A stretch of 64,000 bases of DNA. Origin: a virus. This document shows, one piece after another, positions 36,006 to 51,566 of the stretch. Each line of letters starts with the position of its first letter. Position 1 is the stretch's first letter. Location: positions 5,480 to 69,479 of IMG/VR virus record IMGVR_UViG_3300035187_002895. One strand, 5' to 3'. A program made the translations under genes and the position numbers. The notes under the pieces were generated by a model that ran no database searches, was not told the DNA's origin, and saw nothing but the letters and a program-made list of their open reading frames with translations.

Positions 36006-36009
36006 CCGA

Positions 36010-36726
36010 ATGGAAAATAACAAAATTGTACTCCATGGAATACATTGTTTACTTGGAGATTCAGACATAACCACTCATATTCAAAATCACGGAACCTTAA
36101 AATGGGATGAACCGTTTTCTTTAATAACCCAAATATTGGGTAAGGGCAATGGACGGGTTATGGCCGACATAGGGGCGTATATAGGAGATAGTGTAAAATG
36201 GTTTATTGATGACGGATGGGATTGCCATGCTTTTGAGCCTCAAAAAGATGCTTATGAATGTTTGGTCTTAAATGTTGGCAATGATTGTAAAACCTACAAT
36301 ATTCCAATAGGGTCTTCTCAATTGGTCAGTATGTATGCCCAAACCGAAGGAAATCTTGGAGCAAGAAGCTTAGATTTGGGAGGCGAAATTTCTGCGGTGG
36401 AATTGGATTCAATAATGGACAAAGTGGATTTCATAAAAATAGATGCCGAAGGTTTTGAGCCATTTATTTTGGAAGGTAGTAAAATCCTTTTGTCAAAAAA
36501 ACCAATAGTTGCAATTGAAATAAATCATGTAGGGCTTGCTAAATATGGATTTGTGGAAAATGATATTTTCAAGTATTTTGATAATTACATAGCCATAGAA
36601 ACATATTTTTATGCAGACTACCAATATGATGTTTTGTTGATTCCTATTGAGAAATATGAAGAATACAAAAAGATCCTTCTTGCAGCCCCTTTTTGCAATC
36701 TTAAATTACGCCATATTACTTTATGA
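36010..36726 (+). CDS. FkbM-family SAM-dependent methyltransferase
   Basis: ADIGAYIG, HAFEP and VDFIKIDAEGFE motifs; likely start MENNK at 36010. Confidence 0.85.
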   Translation: MENNKIVLHGIHCLLGDSDITTHIQNHGTLKWDEPFSLITQILGKGNGRVMADIGAYIGDSVKWFIDDGWDCHAFEPQKDAYECLVLNVGNDCKTYNIPIGSSQLVSMYAQTEGNLGARSLDLGGEISAVELDSIMDKVDFIKIDAEGFEPFILEGSKILLSKKPIVAIEINHVGLAKYGFVENDIFKYFDNYIAIETYFYADYQYDVLLIPIEKYEEYKKILLAAPFCNLKLRHITL

Positions 36727-37028
36727 AAATTCACATAATACTTGGACGATTCGGGGACATTTACATGGTGTGCAAGCAGCTAAAGCAGCCGTCCACCATT
36801 GCCTGCCTTGAAGAGTTTTCTCAAATAGTAGAAGAATTGTTTCCCCAACACACTTGTATTAAACTTACCAATCTGCCAATAAATAACCCATTTATGGCAC
36901 AACAAATCCTTTCGCTGTCCCATCCCTTTCACGATATTGTAGTATGCCAGCAAGACGGTACTCCCTTGGAAAACATGAAGGAATTTAGAACATTTCAAAC
37001 CTACCAAGAACACTATGCTTCCATTTAA
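36723..37028 (+). CDS. Glycosyltransferase-like N-terminal fragment / hypothetical
   Basis: LGRFGDIYM resembles the GT9-type N-terminal motif; only 101 aa. Confidence 0.45.
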   Translation: MKIHIILGRFGDIYMVCKQLKQPSTIACLEEFSQIVEELFPQHTCIKLTNLPINNPFMAQQILSLSHPFHDIVVCQQDGTPLENMKEFRTFQTYQEHYASI

Positions 37029-38058
37029 AAAGGCAATTATAAATCTGGATGGCCATAGCAGTAAAATATTGGACATTCAAGAAATAAAAATCAACATAGT
37101 GGCTGTGCTTAAAATGCTTGGATTGCCATACGAAATATACAAGCCGCACAAAAAAGGATTTCGGGTTTTACAAGAAGAAATGAACAGGCCCGATACGCTA
37201 TACATTCTCAATGATAGTCTTCAATACCACCTTTGCGAAAAGCCGTGCATATTGATTACCAGAAGCATTCCTTGGGTTCAATCTGCCCCCAAGCCCAACA
37301 CAATCGGGGTGATTACTCAGGAAATGATGCTTACCAATCGTTCTTTTCTCATGGCTTTAATTTATAGAAATCAGCCAGTAAGGGGTTTCTATAACAAATA
37401 TGCAGCAAGAACCTATTTGGTTGCCAATGATTATTTCAGTTCCAATATGGATGTCATGCACCGCAACTCAATGGCTATGATTACTTGGAATCATGTGTCT
37501 AAAAAAGACATTCATTTTTCGTCAAGTTTTCATGTTAGCGATGGGCTGCCGTTTGTAAATGATATTTTGAAAGAAGGGTTGTCGTTATTGTCCCATCCTG
37601 ACGACCTTTTGATTATTACCAATCGGGATATTTGCCTTGTCAATGAATCCACCGCAATCATACGGGCTTATATGGATAGCTTAAATCTTTCTTGTTGTTA
37701 TGCAAAAAGGGTTGATTTGCCTGAAATTCCATTCCCTCTTTCCTTTTCTCAAATTCAATCCCATCCACAAGCACCCGGTATTGATTTGTTTGTTTTCCGA
37801 AAGGAGGCTTTGTGCATTCCAGAATTGATAGAAACAAAGCTTTATCTTGGAAGAGTTGGCTGGGATAGTTTTTGGGCCGACCGTGTCCAATACGAATTGC
37901 CATTTAAAATATGCTATCACCAAATGCATAGTTCAGATTGGACAACTGAAAAGGGCGAAAAAGAAAACGCTCATAATATTTGTATTATCAGCCAAGCCTT
38001 GGTGGATTTTCAGGTTTCTTGTAATGAAAAAGGGCCGTACTATACCAAAAACATATAA
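37015..38058 (+). CDS. Putative glycosyltransferase-like protein
   Basis: LPFVNDIL...IITNRDICL...GIDLFVF...LGRVGWD...YHQMH pattern of GT-A-like nucleotide-sugar enzymes. Confidence 0.5.
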   Translation: MLPFKKAIINLDGHSSKILDIQEIKINIVAVLKMLGLPYEIYKPHKKGFRVLQEEMNRPDTLYILNDSLQYHLCEKPCILITRSIPWVQSAPKPNTIGVITQEMMLTNRSFLMALIYRNQPVRGFYNKYAARTYLVANDYFSSNMDVMHRNSMAMITWNHVSKKDIHFSSSFHVSDGLPFVNDILKEGLSLLSHPDDLLIITNRDICLVNESTAIIRAYMDSLNLSCCYAKRVDLPEIPFPLSFSQIQSHPQAPGIDLFVFRKEALCIPELIETKLYLGRVGWDSFWADRVQYELPFKICYHQMHSSDWTTEKGEKENAHNICIISQALVDFQVSCNEKGPYYTKNI

Positions 38059-38424: not shown

Positions 38425-40650
38425 TCAGGCCCTCACCTTTCGCAAAAAAGTTCCCCTCGGAAACAAGTTCGTCCCTGCCTTCACCGTTGTGTTTGCGTAC
38501 AAAAACGGGTTGCTGTATTCGTTCGTGTTGAACTCGTAGAAATGGGCCATTATTGTGGCCATGGTGCTATCACTTTTCGTCCTGTTGGTTATGTCAAACA
38601 TCATGTTGTCATTGATGCTCTGAATGAAAGGATACCGTATCGGTTCCTCAACAATGTTGTAGGTGTGTTCCCCCAGGAAGATGCTGTCCCCCCGAAGGAA
38701 GTCATTGAAGTATGTGGCCCCTTTCCGAACCACATCGTTCCCCTGTCCTTCTATTCCGGTATAGATTCCCACCGTTTCCCATTGAACCTGTGTCGGGCTT
38801 GCTTCGTTCAGGATTTCGGCTTCCCGTAACAGGAACCCTCCATAGCCCCTTGCGCTGAAAAAGTTCTCCACGCTTATTGAGGCGTTATTTTCGATTACAA
38901 TAGGCATGGAGTAGTACACAGCTGCCATAAGCAATTGTTCCATGTCCATGTTCGGATCGGCAGACCGATGCGTAAAGGAAAGGAACACGGCAGGGGTGGG
39001 GAAATAATTCGGCAAATTGTTTCCTGTTGTGGCCCTCACTTTTCTGTTTTCGTCCTCGTATGCCTTGTTGTAGTAGAGTTTGCCCGTTATGGCCATTTTG
39101 GAGCCTTTCCCTTTGGTGCTGGCTTTTAGGTAGGGGTCCACTCCCAAACAACCAAGTTTGCCGTTTACAGGGCATTTTACGCCCCTCTTTATTTGCATCC
39201 TGTTTATGTAGGCAGCAGGAGGTTCCCATGTCCTTTGGACGGTCCCCTTGTTGTCCTCTTTCCATCCCACTACGGTTTTCTCCTTTGGGTCCATCCAATA
39301 GAAGTAGCCCGTCCTCACCATGTCCTGAACGGACTTTATGTCTGCCGTCCTCTTGAGGGACTGGAGAATGGATATGTCGAAAGGGCAATGTTCGTTCAGG
39401 CTATTGAATGCGTCCGAAGGGGTGAAGGGGTTCTGTCGCATTTCCTCTGCGTACAGGTCGTCAAGCCCCGCTTCAAGGAGTTGTTGCCTGTCCCTGCTGA
39501 GTTTGTCCCTGCTCCCTATCCTTTCGTCATGGCCGTGTTTCTGCATCCATTCCCATTGTTCGTCATCGGGGTATTCCACAATGTCGTTCCCGTAGGCATC
39601 CGTCCAACCGGGAAGGCCCATGTAGGCAGGAAGGAACAGGGCTATCAGTTTGTTGGTAGTGGTGGGGTACTTCCCGTTCTGTCGGGTGTCAAGGTTGGCC
39701 TGTTCGTAAAACCTGCGGAACTCCTCGCCTCCCTGGTCGCCCTCTTCCGTTGTGGTGGGAAAGAAAGCAAAGCCCCTTTTGCGGCCATTCACCATCAAGG
39801 CCCTCACCTGTTTGGCCCACCATTTGGTGATTTGAACCTGCACCCATTTACCGCCCTCATCGGCAAAGAGGCCGTTCAGACGCTTTCCATCCCATCCCCG
39901 TTTGGTTAGGGCACGGAGCCTTATGGAGCCTCCAAGGGCCTTGGAAATGCTCGTTGTTTTCTTCGTTTTGGATTGCCGTTCGGGCGGTTCCACAAGAAGG
40001 AGTTCGTTCTTGAGCATCCTGTGGGTGGGAATAAGCCACAAAGGAAGGGACATAACAGGCTTGGAAATGAGTTCGTCAAAGTTCTCATCAGCAAGTTTCT
40101 GGTCGGAAGAAGAAAGCCCTATGTTCTGCTTTTCGGCCCGTATGGCAAGCCAGAACATTATCAGGTGGCCCCAAGTGGAAAGCCCCTCCTGACGGCCTTT
40201 CAGGTAGATAACGCCCAGTTCCTTGTGGTGCTGGAAAACATTCCAACAGAAATGAAGGATTTTCCGTTGGCGGTCCCTGTATTCAAGAAAGCCGTCAGAA
40301 GTTTCAAGGGCGGGTTTCCAATAGTTCAGGCCGAGGTACATCCAAGGGTTTATCCAAGTGAGAACGCCCCTGATATACATCCATTGGCCCGTATGGAAGA
40401 TTTTCTTCACCTCCTCCTTAATGAACTGTTGCTGAAGGGGCGTGTAACGGATGGAGCCGTCATCGGCCCGTTGGCCCTGTTCTATGTTCATGTAGTCAGG
40501 GATGGGCGTTCTTGTGAACTTGGCCTTGGGGTTTCCGTATCCGGGAACGGATGTAAGGTCTTCGGGAATGGGCGGGGAAATGCACTCCAGATTCCATATC
40601 GTTTCTACGATACGGTTTTTAACAAGTTTCTGGTTTTCCTTTAGTAACAT
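38425..40650 (-). CDS. terL: Terminase large subunit
   Basis: LKGRQEGLST (ATPase Walker A variant), LFADEGGKW (Walker B), GVDPY nuclease motif; 741 aa, crAss-like type. Confidence 0.9.
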   Translation of the reverse strand: MLLKENQKLVKNRIVETIWNLECISPPIPEDLTSVPGYGNPKAKFTRTPIPDYMNIEQGQRADDGSIRYTPLQQQFIKEEVKKIFHTGQWMYIRGVLTWINPWMYLGLNYWKPALETSDGFLEYRDRQRKILHFCWNVFQHHKELGVIYLKGRQEGLSTWGHLIMFWLAIRAEKQNIGLSSSDQKLADENFDELISKPVMSLPLWLIPTHRMLKNELLLVEPPERQSKTKKTTSISKALGGSIRLRALTKRGWDGKRLNGLFADEGGKWVQVQITKWWAKQVRALMVNGRKRGFAFFPTTTEEGDQGGEEFRRFYEQANLDTRQNGKYPTTTNKLIALFLPAYMGLPGWTDAYGNDIVEYPDDEQWEWMQKHGHDERIGSRDKLSRDRQQLLEAGLDDLYAEEMRQNPFTPSDAFNSLNEHCPFDISILQSLKRTADIKSVQDMVRTGYFYWMDPKEKTVVGWKEDNKGTVQRTWEPPAAYINRMQIKRGVKCPVNGKLGCLGVDPYLKASTKGKGSKMAITGKLYYNKAYEDENRKVRATTGNNLPNYFPTPAVFLSFTHRSADPNMDMEQLLMAAVYYSMPIVIENNASISVENFFSARGYGGFLLREAEILNEASPTQVQWETVGIYTGIEGQGNDVVRKGATYFNDFLRGDSIFLGEHTYNIVEEPIRYPFIQSINDNMMFDITNRTKSDSTMATIMAHFYEFNTNEYSNPFLYANTTVKAGTNLFPRGTFLRKVRA

Positions 40651-40687
40651 TCTCCGTTTTTTTAAGGGTGTGTGTTTTGGGTAAATA

Positions 40688-40715
40688 GGCGCAATTATGC
40701 GACTATAAAGTAGTT
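40688..40715 (+). other. attI-like recombination site 1
   Basis: GGCGCAATTATGCGACTATAAAGTAG^TT, identical to 43666-43693; ends in the GTT core that begins the first cassette. Confidence 0.75.
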
Positions 40716-41487
40716 AGCCGCAATACAGAGAAACCCTGCCAACCGAAGTGGCGAAGTGTTCTGCATCTTTTTCAATTCCTATGAAATTGCGGTTTAACAT
40801 TTCACAGGCTAATCCTGATTTATTACTACCCATCGTAAAATCTAATACCGTTTGACCTTCCAATGAATAAGTGTTTACTATGTACTTACATAATTCAATA
40901 GGTTTTTCAGTTTTATGAAATGTCTTTCCTTCACTTTCGGCAGTCTTAAAATACTGAACGCTTCGTGGGTATCTTAGCCCATCACTTTTTACTTCAACTT
41001 GTTCAAAACTACCATACACATCATTTTCAGTTTGTTGTTTCCTTACACCTTTATTGTAGGCAGTTCCTTCTGTCATTTGTGGGTAATAAACAGGCGTTCC
41101 TTTGCAGAAAACAACAATATCTTCGTGTGCTACCATTGGTCGTTTCTTAGCGTTTAAGAAGCCTGTTGCCTTTGATTTTTCCCAAACCCAAGTATATTTA
41201 AACATCTTCGGGTTGCTCATTATTAGATTGCTTGTAAATGGTTGCTGTGAATGAAATACTATTGGTGCATTTTGTTTAGATAATCTATTTACTTGTTGCC
41301 ACATTTTTTCAAAGTCTATCACATTATCCCAACTGCATTGTGTAGTGCCAAATGGTAAATCACAATAAATTAAGTCAATACTATTGGATGTTAAAAGCGG
41401 TAAAACTTCAAGGCAATCACCCTGATAGAATGTACTGCGGCTAACATCGGTTTTGCAATAGTGGGGCTTTTGTGCTATATCAATCAT
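40714..41487 (-). CDS. DNA methyltransferase, N6A/N4C family (cassette-borne)
   Basis: GDCLE, DLPFG (DPPY variant), HKTEKP, VLDFTMGS, FIGIE. Starts inside the attC-like site; its stop TAA is the TTA of the core. Confidence 0.9.
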   Translation of the reverse strand: MIDIAQKPHYCKTDVSRSTFYQGDCLEVLPLLTSNSIDLIYCDLPFGTTQCSWDNVIDFEKMWQQVNRLSKQNAPIVFHSQQPFTSNLIMSNPKMFKYTWVWEKSKATGFLNAKKRPMVAHEDIVVFCKGTPVYYPQMTEGTAYNKGVRKQQTENDVYGSFEQVEVKSDGLRYPRSVQYFKTAESEGKTFHKTEKPIELCKYIVNTYSLEGQTVLDFTMGSNKSGLACEMLNRNFIGIEKDAEHFATSVGRVSLYCG

Positions 41488-41569
41488 TTGTAATTCTATT
41501 AAATATTAGTTGTGGGTTGAACATTTGTGCCTTGAAACCCCACCATCGCAAAGCCGTATTCCGTTAGCC
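41436..41569 (+). repeat. attC-like site 1
   Basis: TGCGGCTAAC-ATCGGTTTTGCAATAGTGGGG...CCCCACCATCGCAAAGCCG-TATTCC-GTTAGCC imperfect palindrome. Confidence 0.85.
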
Positions 41570-41570
41570 A

Positions 41571-41786
41571 CTATTGCTTCAATCTCCAAACTTGGTGTAG
41601 TGTATTATCACCTATCATTTCTGCTAAGTGTTTCTCGCAACAATGAGTGTAGTCTTCATAAGTTTTACCCTCTCCAATGTCTTGCACCTGAAATACGGCT
41701 TTGTCGTTACAATTAAGCTCGCAACAGTGCAATGACGGCTGGCTTTGTTCGTTCAATTGTGGTGTTTCAAATAACCTTTCCTGCAT
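41571..41786 (-). CDS. Small Cys/His protein (cassette remnant)
   Basis: 71 aa, CCELNC...HCCEKH possible Zn finger. Confidence 0.55.
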   Translation of the reverse strand: MQERLFETPQLNEQSQPSLHCCELNCNDKAVFQVQDIGEGKTYEDYTHCCEKHLAEMIGDNTLHQVWRLKQ

Positions 41787-41789
41787 ATT

Positions 41790-42215
41790 TCAATCCTTTC
41801 CTTTCCGTTTCTTTTTCAGGGCAAGCTTCAGGTCCTCCACGGCCTTCCGTAGAATCAATGTGCAATTTATAACTTTTTCCGAACTCTGTATCTTCGGGAG
41901 CCGTTTCTGTACCTTCACCAATGCCCTCGTAAGGGCCTGTGCCTCCGTCTTCATCTGGAACGCCTCATAGTCCCGTTCCAATGTGCTATTGGCCGCATAA
42001 GCGGGTAGGCCCCCCTTCCACAATGAACGGCCCGGATAGAAAAAGTTGGTTGGATGGACATACTCCTTCTTGACGGGTCCGAATTGGTGCATTACGGCAG
42101 ACAGGTCGTCATTGACGGCCACCACCTGCCACTTTGCCGTTACATACCGGCCTCTTACAAATATAAAATCGCCAGTCTTTATCATGTGCTTTCTCCGTGT
42201 TGGTTGTCGCTTCAT
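41790..42215 (-). CDS. Hypothetical protein
   Basis: 141-aa ORF with backbone-like composition. Confidence 0.55.
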   Translation of the reverse strand: MKRQPTRRKHMIKTGDFIFVRGRYVTAKWQVVAVNDDLSAVMHQFGPVKKEYVHPTNFFYPGRSLWKGGLPAYAANSTLERDYEAFQMKTEAQALTRALVKVQKRLPKIQSSEKVINCTLILRKAVEDLKLALKKKRKGKD

Positions 42216-42462
42216 GGATGTATTTAACTCGTTTTAAAATGTATTCCTTTTTCGTTTCCGCAAACAGGACAAACTCCCCCTTGTACACCCTCCTCAGATA
42301 CTGCCTGATTTCCATGTAGGTTTGGGTGCGGAAGTAATACTTGCTTACAGGAATGATGTGTCCCAAAGGAAGGGACTGTAGCCTGTCGGCAAATATTTTA
42401 CTCAGCAGTTTCGGGGGTTTCCTTCCCCTTGTTGCCCTTTCTTTCAACAGCCGGACTTTCAT
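42109..42462 (-). CDS. Hypothetical basic protein (possible DNA-binding)
   Basis: 117 aa with RGRKP motif; overlaps neighbours. Confidence 0.45.
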   Translation of the reverse strand: MKVRLLKERATRGRKPPKLLSKIFADRLQSLPLGHIIPVSKYYFRTQTYMEIRQYLRRVYKGEFVLFAETKKEYILKRVKYIHEATTNTEKAHDKDWRFYICKRPVCNGKVAGGGRQ

Positions 42463-42964
42463 GTTTTATTTCCCGTAATGCAGCTTCCAAAGCCCCTTCA
42501 CCAAAATCACTTTCCAGTTTTCCGGTATTGAAGTCGGCCTCGGCCTTTTCATTTTTCTTAAACAAATCTTCTGCCATTCTTTTGATTTCGTCCATGACAG
42601 GCTTTAACTTTAGGCTATTCTCAATCTTAACCTTGTAAGAGGAGTTTTCGTTTGGCCTTCCGTCAGGTTCAGGAGTGCGGATGGATTCGCAGACATTGTG
42701 GTACATTCTCACCATGGACCAATAGGCTTCGGCCTTTATGTTGAGGGCAAAGTGTTCCCTGCTCCCAATCAAAAGGACCTCATCAGGAAGGGAAAACCCC
42801 ACCCTACGGGTTGTTTCGGCCACCCTTCCCTCCCATGTGAGGCTCAGGGGAATCGTGTCGCTGTACACCAACTCCACCCACTCTTTTTGCCTTTCGGTAA
42901 GTTTTATTGTGGGCAGAGAGGATGTACTTAATTCCTCTGAAGGTTGTTTCTTTGACTTCGCCAT
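42398..42964 (-). CDS. Hypothetical protein (candidate terminase small subunit)
   Basis: 188-aa helical protein upstream of terL; candidate by position only. Confidence 0.45.
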   Translation of the reverse strand: MAKSKKQPSEELSTSSLPTIKLTERQKEWVELVYSDTIPLSLTWEGRVAETTRRVGFSLPDEVLLIGSREHFALNIKAEAYWSMVRMYHNVCESIRTPEPDGRPNENSSYKVKIENSLKLKPVMDEIKRMAEDLFKKNEKAEADFNTGKLESDFGEGALEAALREIKHESPAVERKGNKGKETPETAE

Positions 42965-43229
42965 TTTGAATTTGTTCTAAAAGTTGTTCGATTAGGTCCA
43001 CCAGGGGAGGAACCATTCCGATTATGTAGCTGTCCTGTTCGCTATGGATTCCGGTGGCTACAAGAAAGTTGCCCCCTCTAACATAGATTTCATAGCATTT
43101 AAGGTGGTTGTTAAAAACTCTTCTCCAGCAATCCTTGGATGGCGGAAGACAATCCACTCTTTCCGGCCTTTTTTTGGGGCTATCCTTGGTTTGGCCCGTG
43201 TCCTGCTGATCCGTTGGGTTAGTTTCCAT
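42804..43229 (-). CDS. Hypothetical protein
   Basis: 141-aa ORF with A-rich start context. Confidence 0.45.
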   Translation of the reverse strand: METNPTDQQDTGQTKDSPKKRPERVDCLPPSKDCWRRVFNNHLKCYEIYVRGGNFLVATGIHSEQDSYIIGMVPPLVDLIEQLLEQIQNGEVKETTFRGIKYILSAHNKTYRKAKRVGGVGVQRHDSPEPHMGGKGGRNNP

Positions 43230-43351
43230 GATTTTTTAAGGTCTGTTTTTCGTGCCTTTGGGAAGCGTTGGATTCCTGTTTGCATAAATTCCCCGAAGGA
43301 ATAAAACCGAAGCCGTCCTGTGTCCCGTGTCCATTTTTCTGTACCGTCCAT
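43058..43351 (-). CDS. Hypothetical protein
   Basis: 97 aa, TAATG coupling to the upstream gene. Confidence 0.4.
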   Translation of the reverse strand: MDGTEKWTRDTGRLRFYSFGEFMQTGIQRFPKARKTDLKKSWKLTQRISRTRAKPRIAPKKGRKEWIVFRHPRIAGEEFLTTTLNAMKSMLEGATFL

Positions 43352-43629
43352 TATTCATTCAGGAGCGTTTCATACATTTCCAGAAGTGTTTCTGCCTTTA
43401 GAAATTCTGAACTATAGGCAAGGGAGAACCAATTGGGGCAATCTGGAAGGGTTTGGTCCCAATTCCATTTGGTTTTGAGTTGTTCAAAGATTTCCCTTGC
43501 TTTCGGAGGTTCTTCAAAGTCTAATGCGGTAAACAGACGGGAAAGGTCTGATTGCATTTCTTTTTCCTTTCTCACCCAGTAAAGGGACTTCACCTGAAAG
43601 TAGAATGGTATTAATTTGGTTATGTTCAT
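43351..43629 (-). CDS. Hypothetical protein
   Basis: 92-aa ORF beginning just beyond attI-like site 2. Confidence 0.55.
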   Translation of the reverse strand: MNITKLIPFYFQVKSLYWVRKEKEMQSDLSRLFTALDFEEPPKAREIFEQLKTKWNWDQTLPDCPNWFSLAYSSEFLKAETLLEMYETLLNE

Positions 43630-43665
43630 TTCGATTTTGTTTTTGTTTCGCTTTTTGGTCGTGTT

Positions 43666-43693
43666 GGCGCAATTATGCGACTATAAAGTAGTT
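43666..43693 (+). other. attI-like recombination site 2
   Basis: GGCGCAATTATGCGACTATAAAGTAG^TT, 28/28 identical to site 1. Confidence 0.75.
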
Positions 43694-43710
43694 ATAAAAC
43701 ATTAAAACGA

Positions 43711-43859
43711 TTTTATAACAAAGTATATAAGTAATGTTTGGGTTGGTTTACCAATCTAATAACCTTCCAGTAATTAACCACCTCATTCATTAGTAGGGTG
43801 CAAGGTGTTCTCTAAACACGAACCACCCAAACACATACTTATATACTCAATCGTTAGCG
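43711..43859 (+). repeat. attC-like site 2
   Basis: TTTTATAAC-AAAGTATATAAGTAATGTTTGGGT...ACCCAAACACATACTTATATACT-CAATC-GTTAGCG. Confidence 0.85.
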
Positions 43860-44312
43860 GTAATTTAAGACAGAGAACGTGCCAACCTTTGCCTTCTCCC
43901 CGAAAATGATAATACACATCGGCAACCAAAGTCCACGTTCTTCATCATTAAAATTTACCTCGCCATTGATAAAACGAATTTCTGCTTTTACACAAACTTC
44001 CGCCCACCATTTTGTATTGCTTCTTACAGGTATTAAACAAACTTTCGTTCCTCCAAACCTTTCAGCATCATTACACGCTTTTTTTACCCACTTATTCAAA
44101 TCTCTGCTAAATGGTGGGTTCATCCAACAATTACCTTCCCAATTCATAGCAAGTGAATTATCTTCCTTTGTCCAATATTCGGGCAGTTTGTAGTTTAATG
44201 CACTTGCACAAACATCTCTTGTTAAGCCAAATTCGTTTATCAATGGCTGTACTATTTTAAGCGGAGTACTATACTCAACGCTATTACTTTCTCCTACTAC
44301 TTGTGTTCCCAT
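43854..44312 (-). CDS. Phage N6-adenine methyltransferase (Dam-like, PF05869-type), cassette-borne
   Basis: YSTP...DVCAS...WMNPPFS...LIPVRSNTKWW...IRFINGEVNF; stop codon lies in the GTTA core. Confidence 0.85.
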   Translation of the reverse strand: MGTQVVGESNSVEYSTPLKIVQPLINEFGLTRDVCASALNYKLPEYWTKEDNSLAMNWEGNCWMNPPFSRDLNKWVKKACNDAERFGGTKVCLIPVRSNTKWWAEVCVKAEIRFINGEVNFNDEERGLWLPMCIIIFGEKAKVGTFSVLNYR

Positions 44313-44342
44313 ATTTTAAATTTTAATTTCTGAATAATAAAC

Positions 44343-44479
44343 TACCGCTAACACGGGTTTTGCGTCAGCAGGGGTTTCGTTTTTTAATTCAGCTTTTTTT
44401 CATTCTATTAAACTTTAGTTGTTAATTAATCATTTGTGCTTCTAAGCCCTGCCGAACGCAAAGCCCGAAACCGTTACCT
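44343..44479 (+). repeat. attC-like site 3
   Basis: TACCGCTAAC-ACGGGTTTTGCGTCAGCAGGG...CCCTGCCGAACGCAAAGCCCG-AAACC-GTTACCT. Confidence 0.85.
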
Positions 44480-44485
44480 GCAAGG

Positions 44486-44698
44486 CTACGATTGACGTTC
44501 CAAATCAGGCGAAGGCTCACACTTTGTATCGGGCATTTGATTAAAAACTTGTTTAATTGTGCTTACATCATATCCATCGAGTTCCAATGCTAATTCAAGT
44601 GCATTTCTAACTGCATACGGATAATAGCAAGTTTTTAAATCAATGGTTACAATTGGTGTTTGCCTTTCGTCTTGGTTTCTTTCTACAATAATTTTCAT
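44486..44698 (-). CDS. Hypothetical protein (cassette-borne)
   Basis: 70-aa ORF filling the cassette. Confidence 0.6.
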   Translation of the reverse strand: MKIIVERNQDERQTPIVTIDLKTCYYPYAVRNALELALELDGYDVSTIKQVFNQMPDTKCEPSPDLERQS

Positions 44699-44736
44699 TT
44701 CGTTTTTAAATTAAATTCCTACTGATAAACCGCCCA

Positions 44737-44825
44737 GCAGGTAACAGCGGTTTGGCAAAAGCTGCCATTGAAATTTTTGCAAAAATTGAGCATCCGTTAT
44801 GCAGCCTTCGCCAAGCCGAGAACCA
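44737..44825 (+). repeat. attC-like site 4 (right core lost)
   Basis: GCAGGTAAC-AGCGGTTTGGCAAAAGCTGC...GCAGCCTTCGCCAAGCCG-AGAACC, then ATC where GTT is expected. Confidence 0.8.
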
Positions 44826-45098
44826 TCATCCCTTCCATATCACAAGGTGTTTAGGGCCGTTTTCAGAGGCCAAATGAAAATCATACCGGAAACGACCCTT
44901 CACCCCGTTCAGCTTCCGCCATCGGGCAAAAGTGGACCTCACCGTGTCGTATTGGTCCCTTCCCACTCCCAACAGAACCACATAGGTTACATTCGGATGC
45001 AGAAAGTTCGTGTAGTCGTATGTCAAAGGACGGCCCCGCCCGTCTGACTTGGGAAACAATGGGGCCTCCGTTTTCTTCTTCTTCTTCTTCGTTTTCAT
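44826..45098 (-). CDS. Hypothetical basic protein (possible DNA-binding)
   Basis: 90 aa, poly-Lys and GRGRP motif. Confidence 0.55.
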   Translation of the reverse strand: MKTKKKKKKTEAPLFPKSDGRGRPLTYDYTNFLHPNVTYVVLLGVGRDQYDTVRSTFARWRKLNGVKGRFRYDFHLASENGPKHLVIWKG

Positions 45099-45733
45099 TT
45101 CCGTCTTCGTTTCACATATCCCATCCGTTCCGCATCAGGGCCGTGAGCCAGCACCATCCTTCTGCGAACCAAAAAGCCTCCGTCCCATCCCACACGAACA
45201 TTGGATTCGTCCCCCCAAAAGAGAACGGTGTTTTCGGGGAAGTGTTCGTTCTGTCCCGATACCACTCCCCTATCGGTGTAGAACTCCCGTATCTTTTCCA
45301 CGGGCTTTTGGAGGGTGTCGTAACTTATCAATTCCACATTGGGAAGAATCAGGCCCGATTTGGACCGGGCCGTTTGTATGGGCTTGCAATAAATGTACTC
45401 CCCCACCATTCGGTCCCCAACGCTTATGATGCTCTGAGGAAGCACAAGAAGGTGTCCGTTTATCTTCGGGGTGTTTCCCTTGTAAGTGGAATGGGCCTCC
45501 GAAAACCAAAACCGAACCTTTTCCCCCACAATGGGGGTGTTCAGTTCGTCCTTGAGCGGGGCCTTTACCACCGTTCCCTCCTCGCATAACCCGTTCGTTT
45601 CGTTGTATATATTGGAAGGGGCATGGAGCAAAAGGGTTCCGTGCTGTATGGTTTCCTCGTAAATGCCACGGATGGCAACAAGGTATTCCCTGATGGGTTG
45701 GAGGTTGGGGGTATATTCCGTTACGAAAGCCAT
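45095..45733 (-). CDS. Tandem GroES-like domain protein
   Basis: Two GroES-like halves (LQPIREYLV...EGTVVKAP...VGEKV; EYIYCKPI...KSGLILP...RGVV). Confidence 0.6.
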   Translation of the reverse strand: MAFVTEYTPNLQPIREYLVAIRGIYEETIQHGTLLLHAPSNIYNETNGLCEEGTVVKAPLKDELNTPIVGEKVRFWFSEAHSTYKGNTPKINGHLLVLPQSIISVGDRMVGEYIYCKPIQTARSKSGLILPNVELISYDTLQKPVEKIREFYTDRGVVSGQNEHFPENTVLFWGDESNVRVGWDGGFLVRRRMVLAHGPDAERMGYVKRRRK

Positions 45734-46023
45734 TACAACAGGATGCAGTGAATGTCGTGTTCCCGAAGGATGAGGTATTCCACCTTGTCAAATTCCACCC
45801 TTGTTCCGGCCCCTTTTGTGTAAAGGACCTTTTGGCTGTGTTTGATTATTTCGCATTTGTTTCCTACACAAATCACTTCTCCTTGGGGAGGGGATTCCTT
45901 TGCGGTATCGGGAATGATAAGGGTTCCTTTTTCGTCATAGAAATCAGCGGGTTTGTCAGGAAGCACAAGTACCCTTGTGTCCACCATCACTACATTGGGA
46001 TGTTTCATTTTTTGTTTTTGCAT
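45733..46023 (-). CDS. groES: Co-chaperonin GroES
   Basis: RVLVLP...GTLIIPDTAKESPPQGEVICVG...KVLYTKGAGTRV...EYLILREHDI. Confidence 0.9.
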   Translation of the reverse strand: MQKQKMKHPNVVMVDTRVLVLPDKPADFYDEKGTLIIPDTAKESPPQGEVICVGNKCEIIKHSQKVLYTKGAGTRVEFDKVEYLILREHDIHCILL

Positions 46024-46030
46024 TAGCGCA

Positions 46031-46060
46031 CAAATGTAAAGGGATTATTTCACAATCAAA
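46031..46060 (-). promoter_or_regulatory. Bacteroidota-type promoter for groES
   Basis: Minus strand TTTG-N18-TACATTTG. Confidence 0.55.
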
Positions 46061-46109
46061 ACAAAAAAAATTCAGGCTTTATTTTCCGGTTTCGCTTTGC
46101 TGGCAAATA

Positions 46110-46137
46110 GGCGCAATTGTTCGCATACAGCGTAGTT
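46110..46137 (+). other. attI-like recombination site 3 (variant)
   Basis: GGCGCAATT-GTTCGCATACAGC-GTAG^TT: same first 9 bp, same length and same GTAGTT end as sites 1 and 2. Confidence 0.7.
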
Positions 46138-46142
46138 ATGTG

Positions 46143-46370
46143 TCATTTTAGACGAGCATACCATTTCAATCTATCATCATTACCAATTTCAACCAATTCA
46201 AATTTAACCGTTCTGTTTTCTAAGATAGCCCAAGGATGAAAATTAAAACTCAAAGGGTCTATTGGTAATTCACCATTTCTATTACCAGTTAAATTTGAAT
46301 TATCGCACTTTACAACCCAATAAGGTTCAATGTTGAAATTGGTTGATTTAATTAAAGTTCCTGTTTCCAT
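46143..46370 (-). CDS. Hypothetical protein (cassette-borne)
   Basis: ORF 46143..46469; likely start METG at 46370, since the longer form reads through the attC-like site. Confidence 0.55.
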   Translation of the reverse strand: METGTLIKSTNFNIEPYWVVKCDNSNLTGNRNGELPIDPLSFNFHPWAILENRTVKFELVEIGNDDRLKWYARLK

Positions 46371-46389
46371 ATTTATTTGAATTAAAAAC

Positions 46390-46486
46390 GACACATAACA
46401 AAGTGTATAAGAAAGTTTGCTATAAAGTTTAGTGCTAATTTGAAAGTTTCTACAAGCAAACCTTCTCATACACCCAGTCGTTATAG
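46390..46486 (+). repeat. attC-like site 5
   Basis: GACACATAAC-AAAGTGTATAAGAAAGTTTGCT...AGCAAACCTTCTCATACAC-CCAGTC-GTTATAG. Confidence 0.85.
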
Positions 46487-46492
46487 GTAAGG

Positions 46493-46735
46493 CTAAAGAC
46501 CGAGTAACTCCGACAATTCATTTTGCTTTTTAGTTAGCCATTCCTTTGCTAATCTTTTACCATCTTCTAAATCGTAGCCTTCTCCGATATATTCGTTTCC
46601 AATAGTTACAGAATAGCTATCACTTTCTTTCCATCCTTTCCATTCAATTAGGCATTGACCTAATGGTGTTTCAGAAATAACGTGAGTATAATGGCTCACT
46701 CCTTGTTTTGGGTCTTTTGGTTCTGTCCAATTCAT
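46493..46735 (-). CDS. Hypothetical protein (cassette-borne)
   Basis: 80-aa ORF filling the cassette. Confidence 0.65.
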   Translation of the reverse strand: MNWTEPKDPKQGVSHYTHVISETPLGQCLIEWKGWKESDSYSVTIGNEYIGEGYDLEDGKRLAKEWLTKKQNELSELLGL

Positions 46736-46759
46736 TTTATTAAAATTTGTGAGAAGCCC

Positions 46760-46894
46760 TACCTATAACAGCACATAGGCAATATGGTGGGGTTCTCGGT
46801 TAATATTAAGTTTCGTTTTCAATTCATGTTTTGTGCTTACAGAGAGGTTAGTGTTCCAAAATCCGCCACATCGCCTATCTGCATCACGTTAGTA
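46760..46894 (+). repeat. attC-like site 6
   Basis: TACCTATAAC-AGCACATAGGCAATATGGTGG...CCGCCACATCGCCTATCTGC-ATCAC-GTTAGTA. Confidence 0.85.
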
Positions 46895-46900
46895 GCCATT

Positions 46901-47383
46901 TTAGGACAGACGTACATACCGCCCTTTAATGCTACAATTTTTTAGTATTTCAGCGTTTTCTTCACCATAAGCAATCAATACGCTTGGTGCTCCAGCCGTT
47001 CCACCTTTTTCGCCTGTAACGTGGTAAAAAGACAATCTACCTTTAATGAATAGTATTGCAGTTGCTTTATCCCATACACATTTAAAAAACATTTTCGTTT
47101 CAGTCCTTGCAAAAGTCAAGGCTATACAATTTCCGTGCATTACTGCCTTTTCTAAAAAAAGTTCTGTGTATTTTCCGTAAGGTGGATTACACCAAACTCT
47201 ACCATACCAATTTTGCATCAGTCCGTTATCATTAATATTAAAATGATTTTTAGCTGTGTCCCAAGGTCTTTCAATCGGGCTACACGGATCTAAATCAAAT
47301 TCGCCTAATGCTTTTACTAATTCGGGTGGGGTAAGCCACTCGTCTTTTCCTGTACTTGTATTACCTTCAAATGTTACATTCAT
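46901..47383 (-). CDS. Phage N6-adenine methyltransferase (Dam-like, PF05869-type), cassette-borne
   Basis: DEWLTPP...FDLDPCS...VWCNPPYG...ARTET...LFIKGRLSF. Confidence 0.9.
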   Translation of the reverse strand: MNVTFEGNTSTGKDEWLTPPELVKALGEFDLDPCSPIERPWDTAKNHFNINDNGLMQNWYGRVWCNPPYGKYTELFLEKAVMHGNCIALTFARTETKMFFKCVWDKATAILFIKGRLSFYHVTGEKGGTAGAPSVLIAYGEENAEILKNCSIKGRYVRLS

Positions 47384-47411
47384 ATTTTTTAAATTAATTC
47401 GTAAAAAAAAC

Positions 47412-47511
47412 GGCTACTAACACGCAATTGGCAAAATAAAAGCCATCAAGTGTAGTGCTAAACTTCAACGGTAGTGCAAGGCTTTTACTTCGCCAATCGC
47501 CACCGTTACCA
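47412..47511 (+). repeat. attC-like site 7
   Basis: GGCTACTAAC-ACGCAATTGGCAAAATAAAAGCC...GGCTTTTACTTCGCCAATCGC-CACC-GTTACCA. Confidence 0.85.
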
Positions 47512-47517
47512 CCAATG

Positions 47518-47931
47518 CTATAAGACACGGTAGTAGTTCTTTTCAAATATTCTGACAACCATATCACGTTCCCATTTTGACAACTTTGACTGTTTGTTTT
47601 GAATAAGTCCATATTCTTTGACAATATCAGTTCTATCAGGCAATTTGCGTTCATATCGACTTTCTCCATACCCATACAAATCATTCATATAAGGCATATA
47701 AATCATTGAAGCCATTGCCATAATTCCACCAAGTTTTGATGAAACGTGTTTATGTTTCCTTTGCTCTGTTTTTATCGGAGCATATTTTACACCGTTTAAA
47801 TCAAAACTTTCATCGTATGAATGTGAATTTGGTTCATCAACTATAATCACATCAACACCTTTGTTTTTTAATGCTTCGGCAACTGCTTTCCCAGAGCCAT
47901 CAATTCCAATTATTCCTATTTTATTTTCCAT
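47518..47931 (-). CDS. Hypothetical protein with Rossmann-like N-terminus (cassette-borne)
   Basis: 137 aa starting KIGIIGIDGSGKAVAEAL..GVDVIIVD. Confidence 0.6.
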   Translation of the reverse strand: MENKIGIIGIDGSGKAVAEALKNKGVDVIIVDEPNSHSYDESFDLNGVKYAPIKTEQRKHKHVSSKLGGIMAMASMIYMPYMNDLYGYGESRYERKLPDRTDIVKEYGLIQNKQSKLSKWERDMVVRIFEKNYYRVL

Positions 47932-47962
47932 TTGTTTGTTAAATTAAATTCATTAAAAGCAC

Positions 47963-48052
47963 TGGTGGTAACAGCACATAAGCAAAAGCCCAAAATCCAA
48001 CCGCACAATGCCACCGCTATTTGTGCCTTCGCTTATCTGCAAAACGTTACCG
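47963..48052 (+). repeat. attC-like site 8
   Basis: TGGTGGTAAC-AGCACATAAGCAAAAGCCCAAA...TTTGTGCCTTCGCTTATCTGC-AAAAC-GTTACCG. Confidence 0.85.
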
Positions 48053-48072
48053 CACCACCTTACCGCACCACC
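48047..48072 (+). repeat. 13-bp direct tandem duplication at the right junction of array 3
   Basis: TTACCGCACCACC twice, starting exactly at the G^TT position. Confidence 0.8.
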
Positions 48073-48080
48073 CCTCCTGC

Positions 48081-48488
48081 TCACTGCACCACCTCATTTC
48101 CCCGCCTGAGTTCCCTTTGGTTTCCGGTTTCGGTTTTGTGGCATCCCTTACACAACACTTCCAACAGGGAAGGGTCCTCCACGAAAAGCCGTTCACAAAA
48201 TCCCGGAAGGTCTTCGTATCTCCGAAGGCTCCCAACAGGAACGATGTGGTTCACTTCTACATTCCTCCTGTCGTAAAACCTTTGGCAGCGGGAACACAAG
48301 TAGGCCACCCGCTTACTGCGGCCCACATACGAAACGGATGAGGCCCGTTTCAGGGCTACATTGAAGGGCTTCCACCAACGGGATAGGTTCCGTAACGCTG
48401 ACCGTATCTTGCCCATATGGGCCGATTGCGTTTCCGTTCCGCTGTTGCGGGTCCGCTCAACTCTGGGGGCTTTTACCGTTCGTTTCAC
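48081..48488 (-). CDS. HNH-family endonuclease-like protein
   Basis: CSRC...EVNHIVPVG...LEVLCKGCH. Confidence 0.75.
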   Translation of the reverse strand: MKRTVKAPRVERTRNSGTETQSAHMGKIRSALRNLSRWWKPFNVALKRASSVSYVGRSKRVAYLCSRCQRFYDRRNVEVNHIVPVGSLRRYEDLPGFCERLFVEDPSLLEVLCKGCHKTETGNQRELRRGNEVVQ

Positions 48489-49024
48489 TCTCTTTCAAAA
48501 ATCAAATTGTTGTCAAGGCAATGGAACACCTGAAGGAAGTACCGCCTGTCCCTGGGGTGTACTTCCCCCGTGTAACTCTTGTATGTCCTCCCGTTTGTCA
48601 TCCGTATCTTGTGCATCGGGTAGGTTCGCAACAGGTCCGATTCCCGTTCCGTAAAGGTGAAGTAGGCTTCCCCCGAACAATTGAAAGGCTTCCATGATTT
48701 CTTCACCAGTTTGGCCCCGTTCTCAAACAGGACGATGATTTCATCGTTTTCGTTACAGGCCCCAAGGCCCACCATCAAAACGGATACCACAACGCTCAGG
48801 TCGTCCCGGATAATGGGGCTGACAATAAAGCCGAGTTTGCTCGTTTCGTTGGCCACCACAAAGTCCCGTGTGGTGAACAGGTAGGACTTACCCGACATTT
48901 GGTCGGTTTCCCTGTAAATGAAAACGCTGTCGGACTTTTTGAAAGCGTAAACCGTGTCAGGGGACTGTCCCGAAGCACAGGAAAGGGACAGGGCAAAGGA
49001 AAGGGCCGTTATGAAGTGTTTCAT
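48485..49024 (-). CDS. Exported protein with signal peptide
   Basis: MKHFITALSFALSLSCASGQ signal-like N-terminus; host-like periplasmic protein. Confidence 0.6.
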   Translation of the reverse strand: MKHFITALSFALSLSCASGQSPDTVYAFKKSDSVFIYRETDQMSGKSYLFTTRDFVVANETSKLGFIVSPIIRDDLSVVVSVLMVGLGACNENDEIIVLFENGAKLVKKSWKPFNCSGEAYFTFTERESDLLRTYPMHKIRMTNGRTYKSYTGEVHPRDRRYFLQVFHCLDNNLIFERE

Positions 49025-49425: not shown

Positions 49426-50850
49426 TTAGAAAGGTTCAAATGCACTAAGTCCATTGGATGTTATTGGTTTTGGGAACTGAGTAAATGTCGGGGCCTGTGA
49501 ACTGTGGTAATCCGAAAATCGCATAACCTTGTTTTCAAATTTTAGCGCAAATTCACCCACCGAACCATGCCTGTTTTTTGCAAGACTACCAACCGCAAGT
49601 CCATCAACTGGACATTCTTGATTATCAACCAAAAAATTACCAGATAGGCCGTAGTATTCAGGCCGCATCAGAAATAAAACTTGGTCAGCATCAGATTCGA
49701 TGTTTCCAGATTCCCGAAGGTCAGATAGTTGCGGGATTTTATCTGACCGCTTTTCCACTTCCCGATTTAGGGAAGAAAGGCAAACCACCGTAATGCCCAA
49801 CTCTTTGGCAATGGCTTTTAAAGTGGACGAAACTTCTCCCATTTCTTGGTCTCTGTTAAGGTTTTTAAAGTTGAGATTGCTCCCAGAAATCTTTTGTAGG
49901 TAATCCACAAAAAGAACCTGAATGCCAAACTTTCGCTTCCAAATGTGGGCTTTGGTACGGATGGATTGCACTCTGATTGTACTCGGATCTGAAATGTAAA
50001 TTGGCAGCTTTGCGGCTATGGCTTCAAAGTGGGCAAGCCGTTCAAGGTCGTTTTCATTAAGCGTGTTGCTATTGCGTAACTTGATTGCCTCAACATTCGA
50101 AATGTTTGAAAGAATCCTTTGCGTGATTTGTTCTCCGGACATTTCCAAAGAAATGACACCAACTGGTATGCCAGCCATTGACAAAGTTTTCATTGTCGTG
50201 GTCATCCAACTTGTTTTTCCGCTTCCAGGTCTTCCGCCTATAACCCAAAAATCAGTTGGTACGAATCCACCTGTAAGTGAATCCAAAACTTTTGACCCAG
50301 TCGTAATACCACCGCCACCGTTTTTGATTTTTCTTGCTCGGTTTTCCCTTTCAATTTCAATTCGCTCCTGCATGGTCAGGTCGTTTGATTTAAAATTGTT
50401 GGTCATTACATCGGAAACTCCTTTTTGGACAAATTCGGCAACTTCGAAAATATCCTCTTTTTCGTTAAGGCTTTTGGATAGTCCCTCAGTAACGACTTGG
50501 TTTATTTTAGTCCGTATGTATTGTTCAAGAATAATCCGAGAATGAATTTCTACATAAGCCGCCGAAGAAACCTTCATAGCTAAAAACCCAAGTTGCGATG
50601 CACCACCAACTTGTTCGTATGTGCCATCTTTTTTTAGAGTTTTGGCAAGCGTAATGGTATCAATCTGAACCCTATCGGCCAACATCTTTTGCAAGGTTTG
50701 GAAAAGGATTTGATTTGCCGGATTTGTAAAGCATTCGTAAGATGGCAAAATATCCAATGCTTTTATCAATGCTTGGTTGTCAAGAATCATTGCCCCTAAA
50801 ACTGCATATTCAGTTTCGAAGCTTTCGTCAAAGGTCGGTTTTGTTGTCAT
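49426..50850 (-). CDS. dnaB: Replicative DNA helicase
   Basis: EYAVLGAMI, GGRPGSGKT, SLEMS, FVDYLQ, LSDLRESGNIESDAD, AKNRHG; likely start MTTKP at 50850 (ATGA overlap). Confidence 0.95.
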   Translation of the reverse strand: MTTKPTFDESFETEYAVLGAMILDNQALIKALDILPSYECFTNPANQILFQTLQKMLADRVQIDTITLAKTLKKDGTYEQVGGASQLGFLAMKVSSAAYVEIHSRIILEQYIRTKINQVVTEGLSKSLNEKEDIFEVAEFVQKGVSDVMTNNFKSNDLTMQERIEIERENRARKIKNGGGGITTGSKVLDSLTGGFVPTDFWVIGGRPGSGKTSWMTTTMKTLSMAGIPVGVISLEMSGEQITQRILSNISNVEAIKLRNSNTLNENDLERLAHFEAIAAKLPIYISDPSTIRVQSIRTKAHIWKRKFGIQVLFVDYLQKISGSNLNFKNLNRDQEMGEVSSTLKAIAKELGITVVCLSSLNREVEKRSDKIPQLSDLRESGNIESDADQVLFLMRPEYYGLSGNFLVDNQECPVDGLAVGSLAKNRHGSVGEFALKFENKVMRFSDYHSSQAPTFTQFPKPITSNGLSAFEPF

Positions 50851-51566
50851 GGTCTGGAGCGGGGATTTTTTATTGGTTCTGTTTGATAATTTGAAAAACT
50901 TGGTATGGATGGATTCATCTGCTCTTTTGATAGCCAATTCCTCAAAGTTAGATTTACACTGACATAATCAAGTTTGGCCTTGTTTTCCATTGCAAGTAGT
51001 TTGGCATGGATTAAATCAATGTTAAACTCAGAGGCTATTTTTTGGGCTTCGTCAAAGGTCAGTTGCTTTTTGAGTTTTGAAACACGAGGGCAGTTTTCTC
51101 TGACCCATTGCTGAATAGGATGAATTGGTTCTTGAAATTTGATTTCATGTTTAATTGTTTCTTGTTCTAATGTTATATGTTTATTTATAGTGTCCATGCT
51201 TTGCCGCATGCTTTTACCTTGCTTTACCTCATGCTTTACCATTGCTTTATCCAATGCATTACCGTTTTTTGGCATGCCACTTTTTAGCGTTATGATGTTA
51301 GCGGTGTATTGATTCTTTGATTTTTGGACCATTTCAATAAACTCCCATTTGACCAAATCGTCAAGATGTTTGGTAAAGGTTTGAACCTTTTTAATTCCGA
51401 TTGCCTCCATAGCGTAATGGGTTGGAAGGCTAAACTTTTCCTTCCACCCCAAACGGTTGCAATGGTCGATTGCAAAAAAATAAATTGCCGTATGTGTAGG
51501 ACTAATCAAGTCGGTATTTTCAAACGACCAATCAAACCACTTGCGACTTAATTCGTAGCCGTTCAT
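50847..51566 (-). CDS. Putative replication initiator (wHTH)
   Basis: 239 aa directly upstream of dnaB; N-terminal wHTH-like region and C-terminal LRNWL motif as in phage O/DnaD-like initiators. Confidence 0.65.
   Translation of the reverse strand: MNGYELSRKWFDWSFENTDLISPTHTAIYFFAIDHCNRLGWKEKFSLPTHYAMEAIGIKKVQTFTKHLDDLVKWEFIEMVQKSKNQYTANIITLKSGMPKNGNALDKAMVKHEVKQGKSMRQSMDTINKHITLEQETIKHEIKFQEPIHPIQQWVRENCPRVSKLKKQLTFDEAQKIASEFNIDLIHAKLLAMENKAKLDYVSVNLTLRNWLSKEQMNPSIPSFSNYQTEPIKNPRSRP

Follow-up and report, generated by a model that had tools for sequence, protein, structure and literature searches.

A 64,000-nucleotide stretch of phage DNA, hereafter termed the window (bases 5480-69479 of the 69.5-kb linear IMG/VR virus record IMGVR_UViG_3300035187_002895; CheckV completeness 72%), contains eight imperfect palindromes of 81-141 nt, all of them on the + strand. 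These are probably attC-type folded-DNA recombination sites of an integron-like cassette system, one whose carriers include phages of Flavobacteriia and of other Bacteroidota as well as some bacterial chromosomes. The sites bound cassettes, are strand-asymmetric and have a positional code of their own, and the family is found beside a short recombinase that resembles Xer and IntI. Their arm geometry is unlike that of class 1 attC, and the extrahelical bases of the latter are absent from them.

In the textbook account, the integron is the system in which a recombinase recognizes single-stranded DNA by its folded shape, and flipped bases together with the IntI insert have been held to be its defining innovation. 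The large site family described here appears to do the same job without flipped bases: there are joins at G|TT, arrays, and a docking site by the enzyme gene, and the enzyme is without the insert. Nature thus provides, in this system, an experiment on the ways in which the choice of strand may be encoded.

The positional code of the sites

The eight sites, termed S1-S8, are located at 41442-41566 (S1, of the long type, 125 nt, 98.9 bits), 43716-43856 (S2, 53.0 bits), 44349-44476 (S3, 104.1 bits), 44742-44828 (S4), 46396-46483 (S5, 59.0 bits), 46766-46891 (S6, 95.9 bits), 47418-47508 (S7, 67.7 bits) and 47969-48049 (S8, 46.6 bits). The scores are those of a covariance model for which 19 sites served as the training set, seven of them window sites and the remaining twelve taken from other contigs. 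S4 was excluded from the training and was recovered by the model at 38.8 bits; it is without the right GTTA core, and its right arm terminates ...GAGAACCATCA / ...GCCGAGAACCATCATCC, the core having been lost. Beyond the eight sites, a search of the 64 kb at E<=1 produced just two weak echoes on the reverse strand, at S1 and S5.

The original prediction assigned these palindromes a structural code distinct from that of canonical attC, and most of the features it listed are present as described. TAAC is followed by A in all eight sites. A C precedes GTT in the seven sites that have GTTA, and this feature fails in S4, which has none; the seven right cores do not fit GTTRRRY in any instance. When one arm is aligned against the other, the unpaired spacer next to the core is short on the left in all eight sites and 2-4 nt longer on the right. 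Counting from TAAC, A at +15 is opposite C in all eight (in S2 and S3 after a 1-nt bulge in the right arm), and A at +12 is opposite C in five (S1, S4, S6, S7 and S8). An A·C mismatch on the plus strand is a G·T wobble on the opposite strand. With DNA energy parameters and minimum free energy (MFE) folding, the minus strand was predicted to fold better, as claimed, in seven of the eight sites when 3-nt flanks were included, the exception being S2, by 0.1 kcal/mol; folded from core to core, the minus strand has the lower MFE in six, the exceptions being S2 and S3.

A larger set of sites was assembled by searching 86 loci, 882 kb in all, with the model, which gave 173 matches at E<=0.001. The best 150 of these were combined with the eight window sites and identical copies were removed, which left 121 sites; as all 19 training sites carry A15, this set leans toward the code, and 14 of the 121 are without A·C at +15 and were recovered by the A15-trained model nevertheless. 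The code is kept across these non-identical sites. TAACA is at the start in 116 of the 121 and CGTTA is at the end in 115; the left spacer has 1-3 nt in 99, and the right spacer has 5-6 nt counting the C in 96, which corresponds to the 4-6 nt given originally plus the C. The right spacer is longer by 2-4 nt in 116. Within the stem, T is found at +7 in 119 sites and A at +15 in 115, and the latter faces C in 107. Position +12 has A·C in 39 sites and G-C in 42, and A·C is found at +10 in 23. The conserved positions are fixed from the left core only, and the C opposite A15 is 17-20 nt from the right core.

Asymmetry between the strands is evident in the same set. At stem positions up to 21, mismatches that become G·T on the opposite strand number 202, vs 41 of the reverse type. 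By docking-site polarity the bottom strand would be the window's minus strand; across the set it has the greater stability in 101 sites and the lesser in 19, with one tie. Fixed extrahelical bases are lacking, as had been suggested for most of the stems: single-base bulges up to position 19 amount to nine in the left arm and 22 in the right arm, and these are scattered.

Intrastrand pairing is supported by covariation, a check called for when the sites were first described. Among 113 distinct rows, 85.1% of the cells are paired vs 54.7% after shuffling, and none of 500 shuffles reached as high a value; a control with slid partners gave 26-38% paired cells. Changes on both sides are present in 17 of the 19 stem pairs. 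The +1 column is a non-pair (A·C) in 112 of 113 rows and the +15 column (A·C) in 108 of 111, and T-A at +7 is found in 113 of 113.

Strand-biased mismatches might also be produced by neutral decay or by strand-biased deamination of palindromes that were once perfect, in which case the A·C/G·T positions would represent no code. C-to-T change on one strand would indeed give transition mismatches that are biased toward one strand, as in the 202 vs 41. Over half of the excess is, however, at a single position (107 at +15, followed by the 39 at +12 and the 23 at +10), adjacent pairs covary freely and stay Watson-Crick, and despite widely differing arms, 115 of the 121 sites retain the A at +15. Decay or deamination is therefore highly improbable as the origin of the pattern, and a code that belongs to the recombination sites is preferred.

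By length, the 121 sites form two classes: 87 sites have ~120-129 nt, and another 21 have 80-99 nt. A conserved central stretch is found in the long class (S1, S3 and the viral locus L018) and a loop motif in the short class (S5, S7, and the loci L016 and L021).

Cassette junctions, docking platforms and the associated recombinase

The sites of the window are organized into three arrays of one, three and four cassettes of low G+C content, and each array is headed by a platform that has no hairpin. Neighbouring cores are complementary. In five of five pairs (S2 and S3, S3 and S4, S5 and S6, S6 and S7, S7 and S8) the right-end 7-mer of one site and the left-end 7-mer of its successor are reverse complements, and three bases outside each core match. 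This is the signature of circular cassettes joined at G|TT. The junctions between platform and first site are complementary as well, in three of three; in array 1 the 7-mer at the junction is GTTAGCC, and the left core of S1 has its reverse complement, GGCTAAC.

The platform is a non-palindromic, 29-bp, attI-like sequence with the pattern GGCGCAATT.T.CG..TA.A..GTAGTTA, which is found three times in the window vs none in 100 shuffles. All three copies are on the + strand and start at 40688, 43666 and 46110. The first, P1 (40688-40716), ends GTAG|TTA, heads array 1 and is 37 nt upstream of the start codon of TerL. P2 (43666-43694) is identical to P1 and heads array 2. P3 (46110-46138) is a variant of these; it heads array 3 and is upstream of a Cpn10-like gene. 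The platform is also found in 10 stretches of other viral contigs, where the DNA past GTAG|TTA differs from lineage to lineage, and it is absent from the genome_contigs collection, which has one genome per species. Among the carriers, G003, a genome of 39 kb that is complete and has terminal repeats, has only one small protein in common with the window phage. The platform and its cassettes are therefore common to unrelated phages. The 349-aa and 376-aa proteins adjoining the G003 platforms matched no Pfam family. A role of the platform as a mere phage promoter of the adjoining gene was considered and ruled out, as the G003 copy is downstream of + strand genes and behind a terminator.

Other known site types provide a poor match. 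A Xer/dif site is ~28 bp of double-stranded DNA with two 11-bp arms and a 6-bp centre, which the phage sites do not fit: their cores are 81-141 nt apart and are joined only by covarying intrastrand pairing. IS200/IS605 or REP/RAYT elements combine short subterminal hairpins with a Y1 (HUH) transposase, whereas PF01797 is absent from the record, and the hairpins are 81-141 nt in length and bound single genes at G|TT.

Tyrosine recombinases of 276 aa and 298 aa were found in two of 22 records searched, in each case 2-4 kb from a copy of a Dam-like methyltransferase cassette that is also found in the window. Their best NCBIfam model is the archaeal XerA type, at 184 and 206 bits (cut-off 220). 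On the integron-integrase model TIGR02249 (cut-off 265) they score 155-159 bits, and the match is split into two segments with model positions 178-238 passed over. Among solved structures the closest is that of a XerC-like protein (4a8e), and IntI4 (2a3v) matches at 3e-27. Identity with IntI1 is 29-30%, with the catalytic residues kept and ~41 IntI1 residues (around 199-250) absent; the absent stretch is presumably the base-binding insert.

Association of sites and enzyme is evident from loci that were retrieved by recombinase homology alone. Such loci number 56 in viral contigs, and the 47 close ones were analysed. All 108 sites found in them are upstream of a recombinase gene of 275-300 aa and on the opposite strand, with no sites in 277 kb downstream of the recombinase; where at least 600 bp of upstream DNA is available, 32 of 37 loci have a site. 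Measured from the gene, the end of the nearest site is at a distance of 162-1550 bp. In four loci (L084, L045, L050 and L052) the gap between site and recombinase match is just 162-182 bp.

Between the recombinase start and the first cassette there is a motif, approximately TACATATA[A/G]TAGTTA, past which the sequences diverge. Its end resembles the ends of the window platforms, ...AAAGTAGTTA and ...AGCGTAGTTA (...GTAGTTA), and the array of the Flavobacterium phage vB_FspS_hattifnatt9-1 is headed by ...TATTGTAGTTA. When the sites are read in the TAACA...CGTTA orientation, the enzyme gene is at the left and is followed by the docking site and then by the sites, which is the order of intI, attI and attC. 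Flanking open reading frames (ORFs) are antisense to the sites in 264 of 295 instances over 153 sites, and cassette ORFs point toward the docking site. The original suggestion of a separate recombinase lineage that acts on single-stranded DNA hairpins is thereby supported in part, on the one hand by the covariation, which is indicative of folded-strand behaviour, and on the other by the short non-IntI enzyme beside 108 of 108 sites.

Comparison with integron attC sites and distribution in hosts

Six class 1 attC sites (aadA1, aac(6')-Ib, blaOXA-1, arr-3, dfrA27 and dfrA14; from R100 and three other plasmids) were run through the same arm-alignment script as the phage sites. The resemblance is considerable. 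Both types are imperfect palindromes bounded by AAC...GTT with a G|TT crossover, in both (class 1 as well as the Vibrio VCR sites recombined by IntI) the R' of one site is complementary to the R'' of the next, and both have a hairpin-less docking site on the recombinase side. Three features that had been considered distinctive of the phage sites are also shared with class 1: A follows TAAC in three of the six, C precedes GTT in six of six, and the bottom strand folds better in six of six. That the bottom strand of canonical attC is the more stable one and is rich in G:T has been described (Nivina 2016, PMC5027507).

The distinctness claimed originally holds for the spacer geometry, the fixed A·C and the lack of extrahelical bases. 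Canonical attC sites have extrahelical bases on the arm of the top-strand AAC and spacers of 5-6 nt per arm (PMC5027507). The phage sites, unlike these, have no extrahelical bases on the R''-L'' arm (canonical: bottom-strand G16 and T20/T24), and their spacers are 1-3 vs 5-6 nt, so that the surplus bases are on the opposite arm; in the class 1 panel the unmatched bases are inside the left arm, whereas those of the phage sites are in the right spacer and none are at fixed stem positions. The phage sites also fix A·C/G·T at +1 and +15 and T-A at +7, and their cores are GTTAnnn. A canonical ORF is upstream of its attC on the top strand, whereas phage ORFs are inverted. With filters off, class 1 attC sites score at most 9.9 bits (E>8) on the phage model, vs 37-109 bits for phage sites. 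Neither 50 kb of R100 nor the Polaribacter phage P12002L, described by Qi et al. as carrying a cluster of attC sites lacking an integron integrase (CALIN), gave a match to the model.

These observations bear on the explanation that the sites are ordinary attC of a classical bacterial IntI, picked up from a host integron and kept in a CALIN like those of virulent phages. Phage CALINs (Qi et al. 2023, PMC9892861) have attC-bounded cassettes without an integrase, several with DNA methyltransferases, and IntI1 recombined five of six phage attC sites in that study. The sites there were called by IntegronFinder or HattCI. The main text names no Flavobacterium phage, and the supplementary list of 17 CALINs may bear on the present system. 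A CALIN has at least two attC sites within a few kb on a replicon that lacks an integron integrase. The window has the corresponding layout, eight sites and no PF00589 gene in a 72%-complete record, although the definition of a CALIN rests on IntegronFinder attC calls. The shared crossover and cores, the TAACA and C-GTT motifs, the complementary R' and R'' and the canonical bottom-strand G:T bias likewise accord with ordinary attC. Such an origin is nonetheless unlikely. Extrahelical bases are absent and the arm asymmetry is opposite to that of the six class 1 sites; most flanking ORFs are antisense to the sites; the enzyme beside every site in the recombinase loci has no IntI insert; class 1 sites, including those of the three other integron plasmids, score poorly on the phage model, and P12002L and R100 give no matches; and the platform is absent from the genome_contigs collection. 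In addition, the IntegronFinder 2.0 survey reports almost no integrons in Bacteroidetes (PMC9024848), and the near-zero count in standard surveys suggests that arrays such as the present ones may be escaping notice.

Thus attC-type sites of a distinct integron-like system remain the preferred explanation, and this system is also found in a cultured phage and in bacteria. The complete genome of vB_FspS_hattifnatt9-1 (NC_048832) has at least 10 sites among small genes on the - strand, and S6 has 87% identity to its DNA. A term search of the paper describing this phage (PMC7077304) returned no mention of hairpins or integrons. Relatives of the recombinase in bacterial assemblies amount to 484 confirmed, mostly from Bacteroidota, of which the best 80 were kept; sites at E<=0.01 are present in 20 of 79 bacterial loci from these best 80. 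The complete chromosome of Polaribacter sp. HL-MS24 has 11 sites, mostly in two clusters, and a Balneola assembly has six that adjoin the recombinase gene. In the Polaribacter locus there are ordinary chromosomal genes on one side of the enzyme gene and HAD, NUDIX and glyoxalase-like cassettes on the other, with the cassette ORFs on the same strand as the sites. In the bacterial arrays A15 is opposite C in eight of nine sites and the bottom strand is more stable in eight of nine.

Five bacterial loci (L133, L107, L118, L164 and L114) have the recombinase and ORFs on the strand of the sites, with the sites after the gene. In phages the sites are antisense to recombinase and ORFs. In both layouts the enzyme gene is on the TAAC side and is co-directional with the cassette genes.

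As the code is unchanged when the ORF strand flips, the wobble strand appears to be set by the polarity of recombination and not by the direction of transcription, which argues against an origin of the asymmetry at the RNA level. It might otherwise be supposed that the hairpins act mainly as RNA in minus-strand transcripts, as terminators, processing sites or stabilisers, and that the asymmetry represents tolerated G·U pairs, since every cassette gene of the window phage has as its sense strand the one that folds better. The bacterial arrays speak against this, as their ORFs are on the other strand and yet the same strand wobbles and folds better. Moreover, the wobble is fixed at one position in 107 of 121 sites and is not scattered, cassette junctions are exactly at the cores, and a search of Rfam, which holds no attC family, gave zero matches for 40000-49000 at E<=1. 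A primary role at the RNA level is consequently very unlikely.

In the proposed mechanism, the short recombinase would recombine the folded bottom strand with the docking site. The design of the family consists of an invariant A·C directly after the core, a short spacer (1-3 nt) on the R'' arm and a long one (5-6 nt including C) on the R' arm, an invariant T-A at +7 and A·C at +15, to which a further A·C at +12 or +10 is often added, with no extrahelical bases. Perhaps strand and register are signalled by the asymmetric bulged spacer and by wobbles at fixed positions, in place of extrahelical bases. For orphan arrays such as those of the window, the enzyme may be supplied in trans by the host or by a co-infecting phage.

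Xer recombinases without an IntI insert are known to act on a hairpin of one DNA strand in the case of CTX-phi attP with XerC/XerD. The likeness to the present system is in the Xer-type tyrosine recombinase without the insert and the single-strand hairpin substrate. The CTX-phi system differs in that the whole phage integrates at chromosomal dif, and there are no cassettes, arrays or G|TT cores. Phage cassette arrays that are served by a Xer-like enzyme were not described in any paper found in a literature search; the study of phage CALINs by Qi et al. 2023 comes closest, and its supplementary tables may list related phages. A broader proposal is tentative and may well be wrong: that this is an independent second class of folded-strand cassette recombination, with a Xer-like enzyme that has no flipped-base pocket and obtains strand and register from the bulged spacer of the cleaved arm and from G·T at +1, +15 and often +10/+12 from R'', and that it runs both chromosomal arrays of Bacteroidota and orphan arrays in unrelated lytic phages, the latter drawing on a common pool of anti-restriction cassettes.

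A number of observations weigh against the integron-like interpretation, in addition to the recombination of phage attC sites by IntI1 and the bias of the 121-site set described above. No tyrosine (PF00589), serine or Y1 recombinase was found in the 69.5 kb of the window record (72% complete). PF00589 is absent from all 10 platform-class records, including the complete G003, and no tyrosine recombinase was found in the complete hattifnatt9-1 genome. The link to the enzyme is therefore by family and not by the window locus. Only the last 8-11 nt of the 29-bp window platform are in common with the recombinase-adjacent motifs. The assignment of the window minus strand as the strand that would be cleaved and exchanged is by analogy with attI x attC.

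The Dam-like methyltransferase gene at 43854-44312, which recurs in 19 other viral loci at 70-99% protein identity, provides a further point of this kind. In the ten closest copies, homology to the window on the stop-codon side ends at the G of GTTA. On the start side it ends 1-15 nt past TAAC in nine of the ten, and it continues through the whole of S3 in L018 only. L017 and L022 have a common start-side hairpin and differ in their outer flanks. From this homology pattern the start-side hairpin is the cassette's own, in agreement with the prediction from platform polarity. The alternative that the cassette's site is on the stop-codon side of the ORF was rejected, as no locus has that hairpin in common with the window and L018 has the start-side one. 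The start-side hairpin is nevertheless replaced far more often than one-sided G|TT exchange would allow; it seems that a gene and its hairpin can be exchanged independently of each other, which one-sided G|TT exchange does not explain.

Cassettes of the window and neighbouring genes

Phage genes of the window include those for a portal protein, TerL (38425-40650, - strand) and a DnaB-like helicase (49426-50937, - strand), and the arrays are located between the terminase and helicase genes. Along this region cassettes of G+C content 0.30-0.38 alternate with backbone of 0.46-0.51. The low-G+C segments are occupied by small ORFs on the - strand, among them an N6/N4 methyltransferase and two Dam-like methyltransferases, and all cassette ORFs of the window are antisense to the orientation of the sites. 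The window phage thus carries three DNA methyltransferases as cargo of a docking site and cassettes that are common to unrelated phages. In cultured Baltic Flavobacterium phages, carriage of a particular methyltransferase tracked plating efficiency on a second host (PMC7077304).

Array 1 has a single cassette on the - strand (40714-41563; G+C 0.365), which consists of the N6/N4 DNA methyltransferase ORF (40714-41487; PF01555, 4.7e-23) and S1. The start of this ORF is inside S1 (41442-41487), so that its first ~15 codons are encoded by the left arm of the hairpin. Read on the opposite strand, the TTA of a GTTA core provides the TAA stop codon of the N6/N4 methylase (40714-40716), where the core is that of the platform, and likewise that of the first Dam gene (43854-43856).

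In array 2, the first cassette (43692-43853, 162 nt) is without an ORF and has little beyond S2. It is followed on the - strand by cassette 2b (43854-44473), with the first Dam-like methyltransferase (PF05869, 6.9e-22) and S3, and by cassette 2c (44474-44828), with a 70-aa ORF (44486-44698) and the degenerate S4. The right end of S4 (region 44800-44830) abuts a block of higher G+C content (44826-46023) that contains the Cpn10-like gene; possibly S4 is the last site of the array in a decayed state, or else a secondary site was used for the junction.

The Dam module (43853-44367; also L003 and L016-L024) has 9-bp terminal inverted repeats, TTAGCGGTA...TACCGCTAA, and close Dam copies are joined to at least six different start-side hairpins. 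In L020 (~4900-5500) a sequence of ~21 nt is found on either side of the module as a direct repeat, and the start-side hairpin is apparently truncated.

All four cassettes of array 3 are on the - strand. Cassette 3a (46136-46480) has a 75-aa ORF (46143-46370), for which no family was found, and S5; 3b (46481-46888) has an 80-aa ORF (46493-46735) and S6; 3c (46889-47505) has the second Dam-like methyltransferase (46901-47383; PF05869, 3.7e-13) and S7; and 3d (47506-48049) has a 137-aa ORF (47518-47931) and S8, the final site of the array.

Between the structural genes and the terminase there is another island of low G+C content (0.36-0.39), at 35992-38058, with + strand genes that include an FkbM-type methyltransferase. 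The covariance model gave zero sites of the hairpin family in this island, which therefore appears to have arrived by another route. Directly after S8, at 48047-48072, the 13-mer TTACCGCACCACC is present twice in tandem, beginning at the TT of the G|TT crossover; this repeat could be a footprint of the flank of the original docking site.

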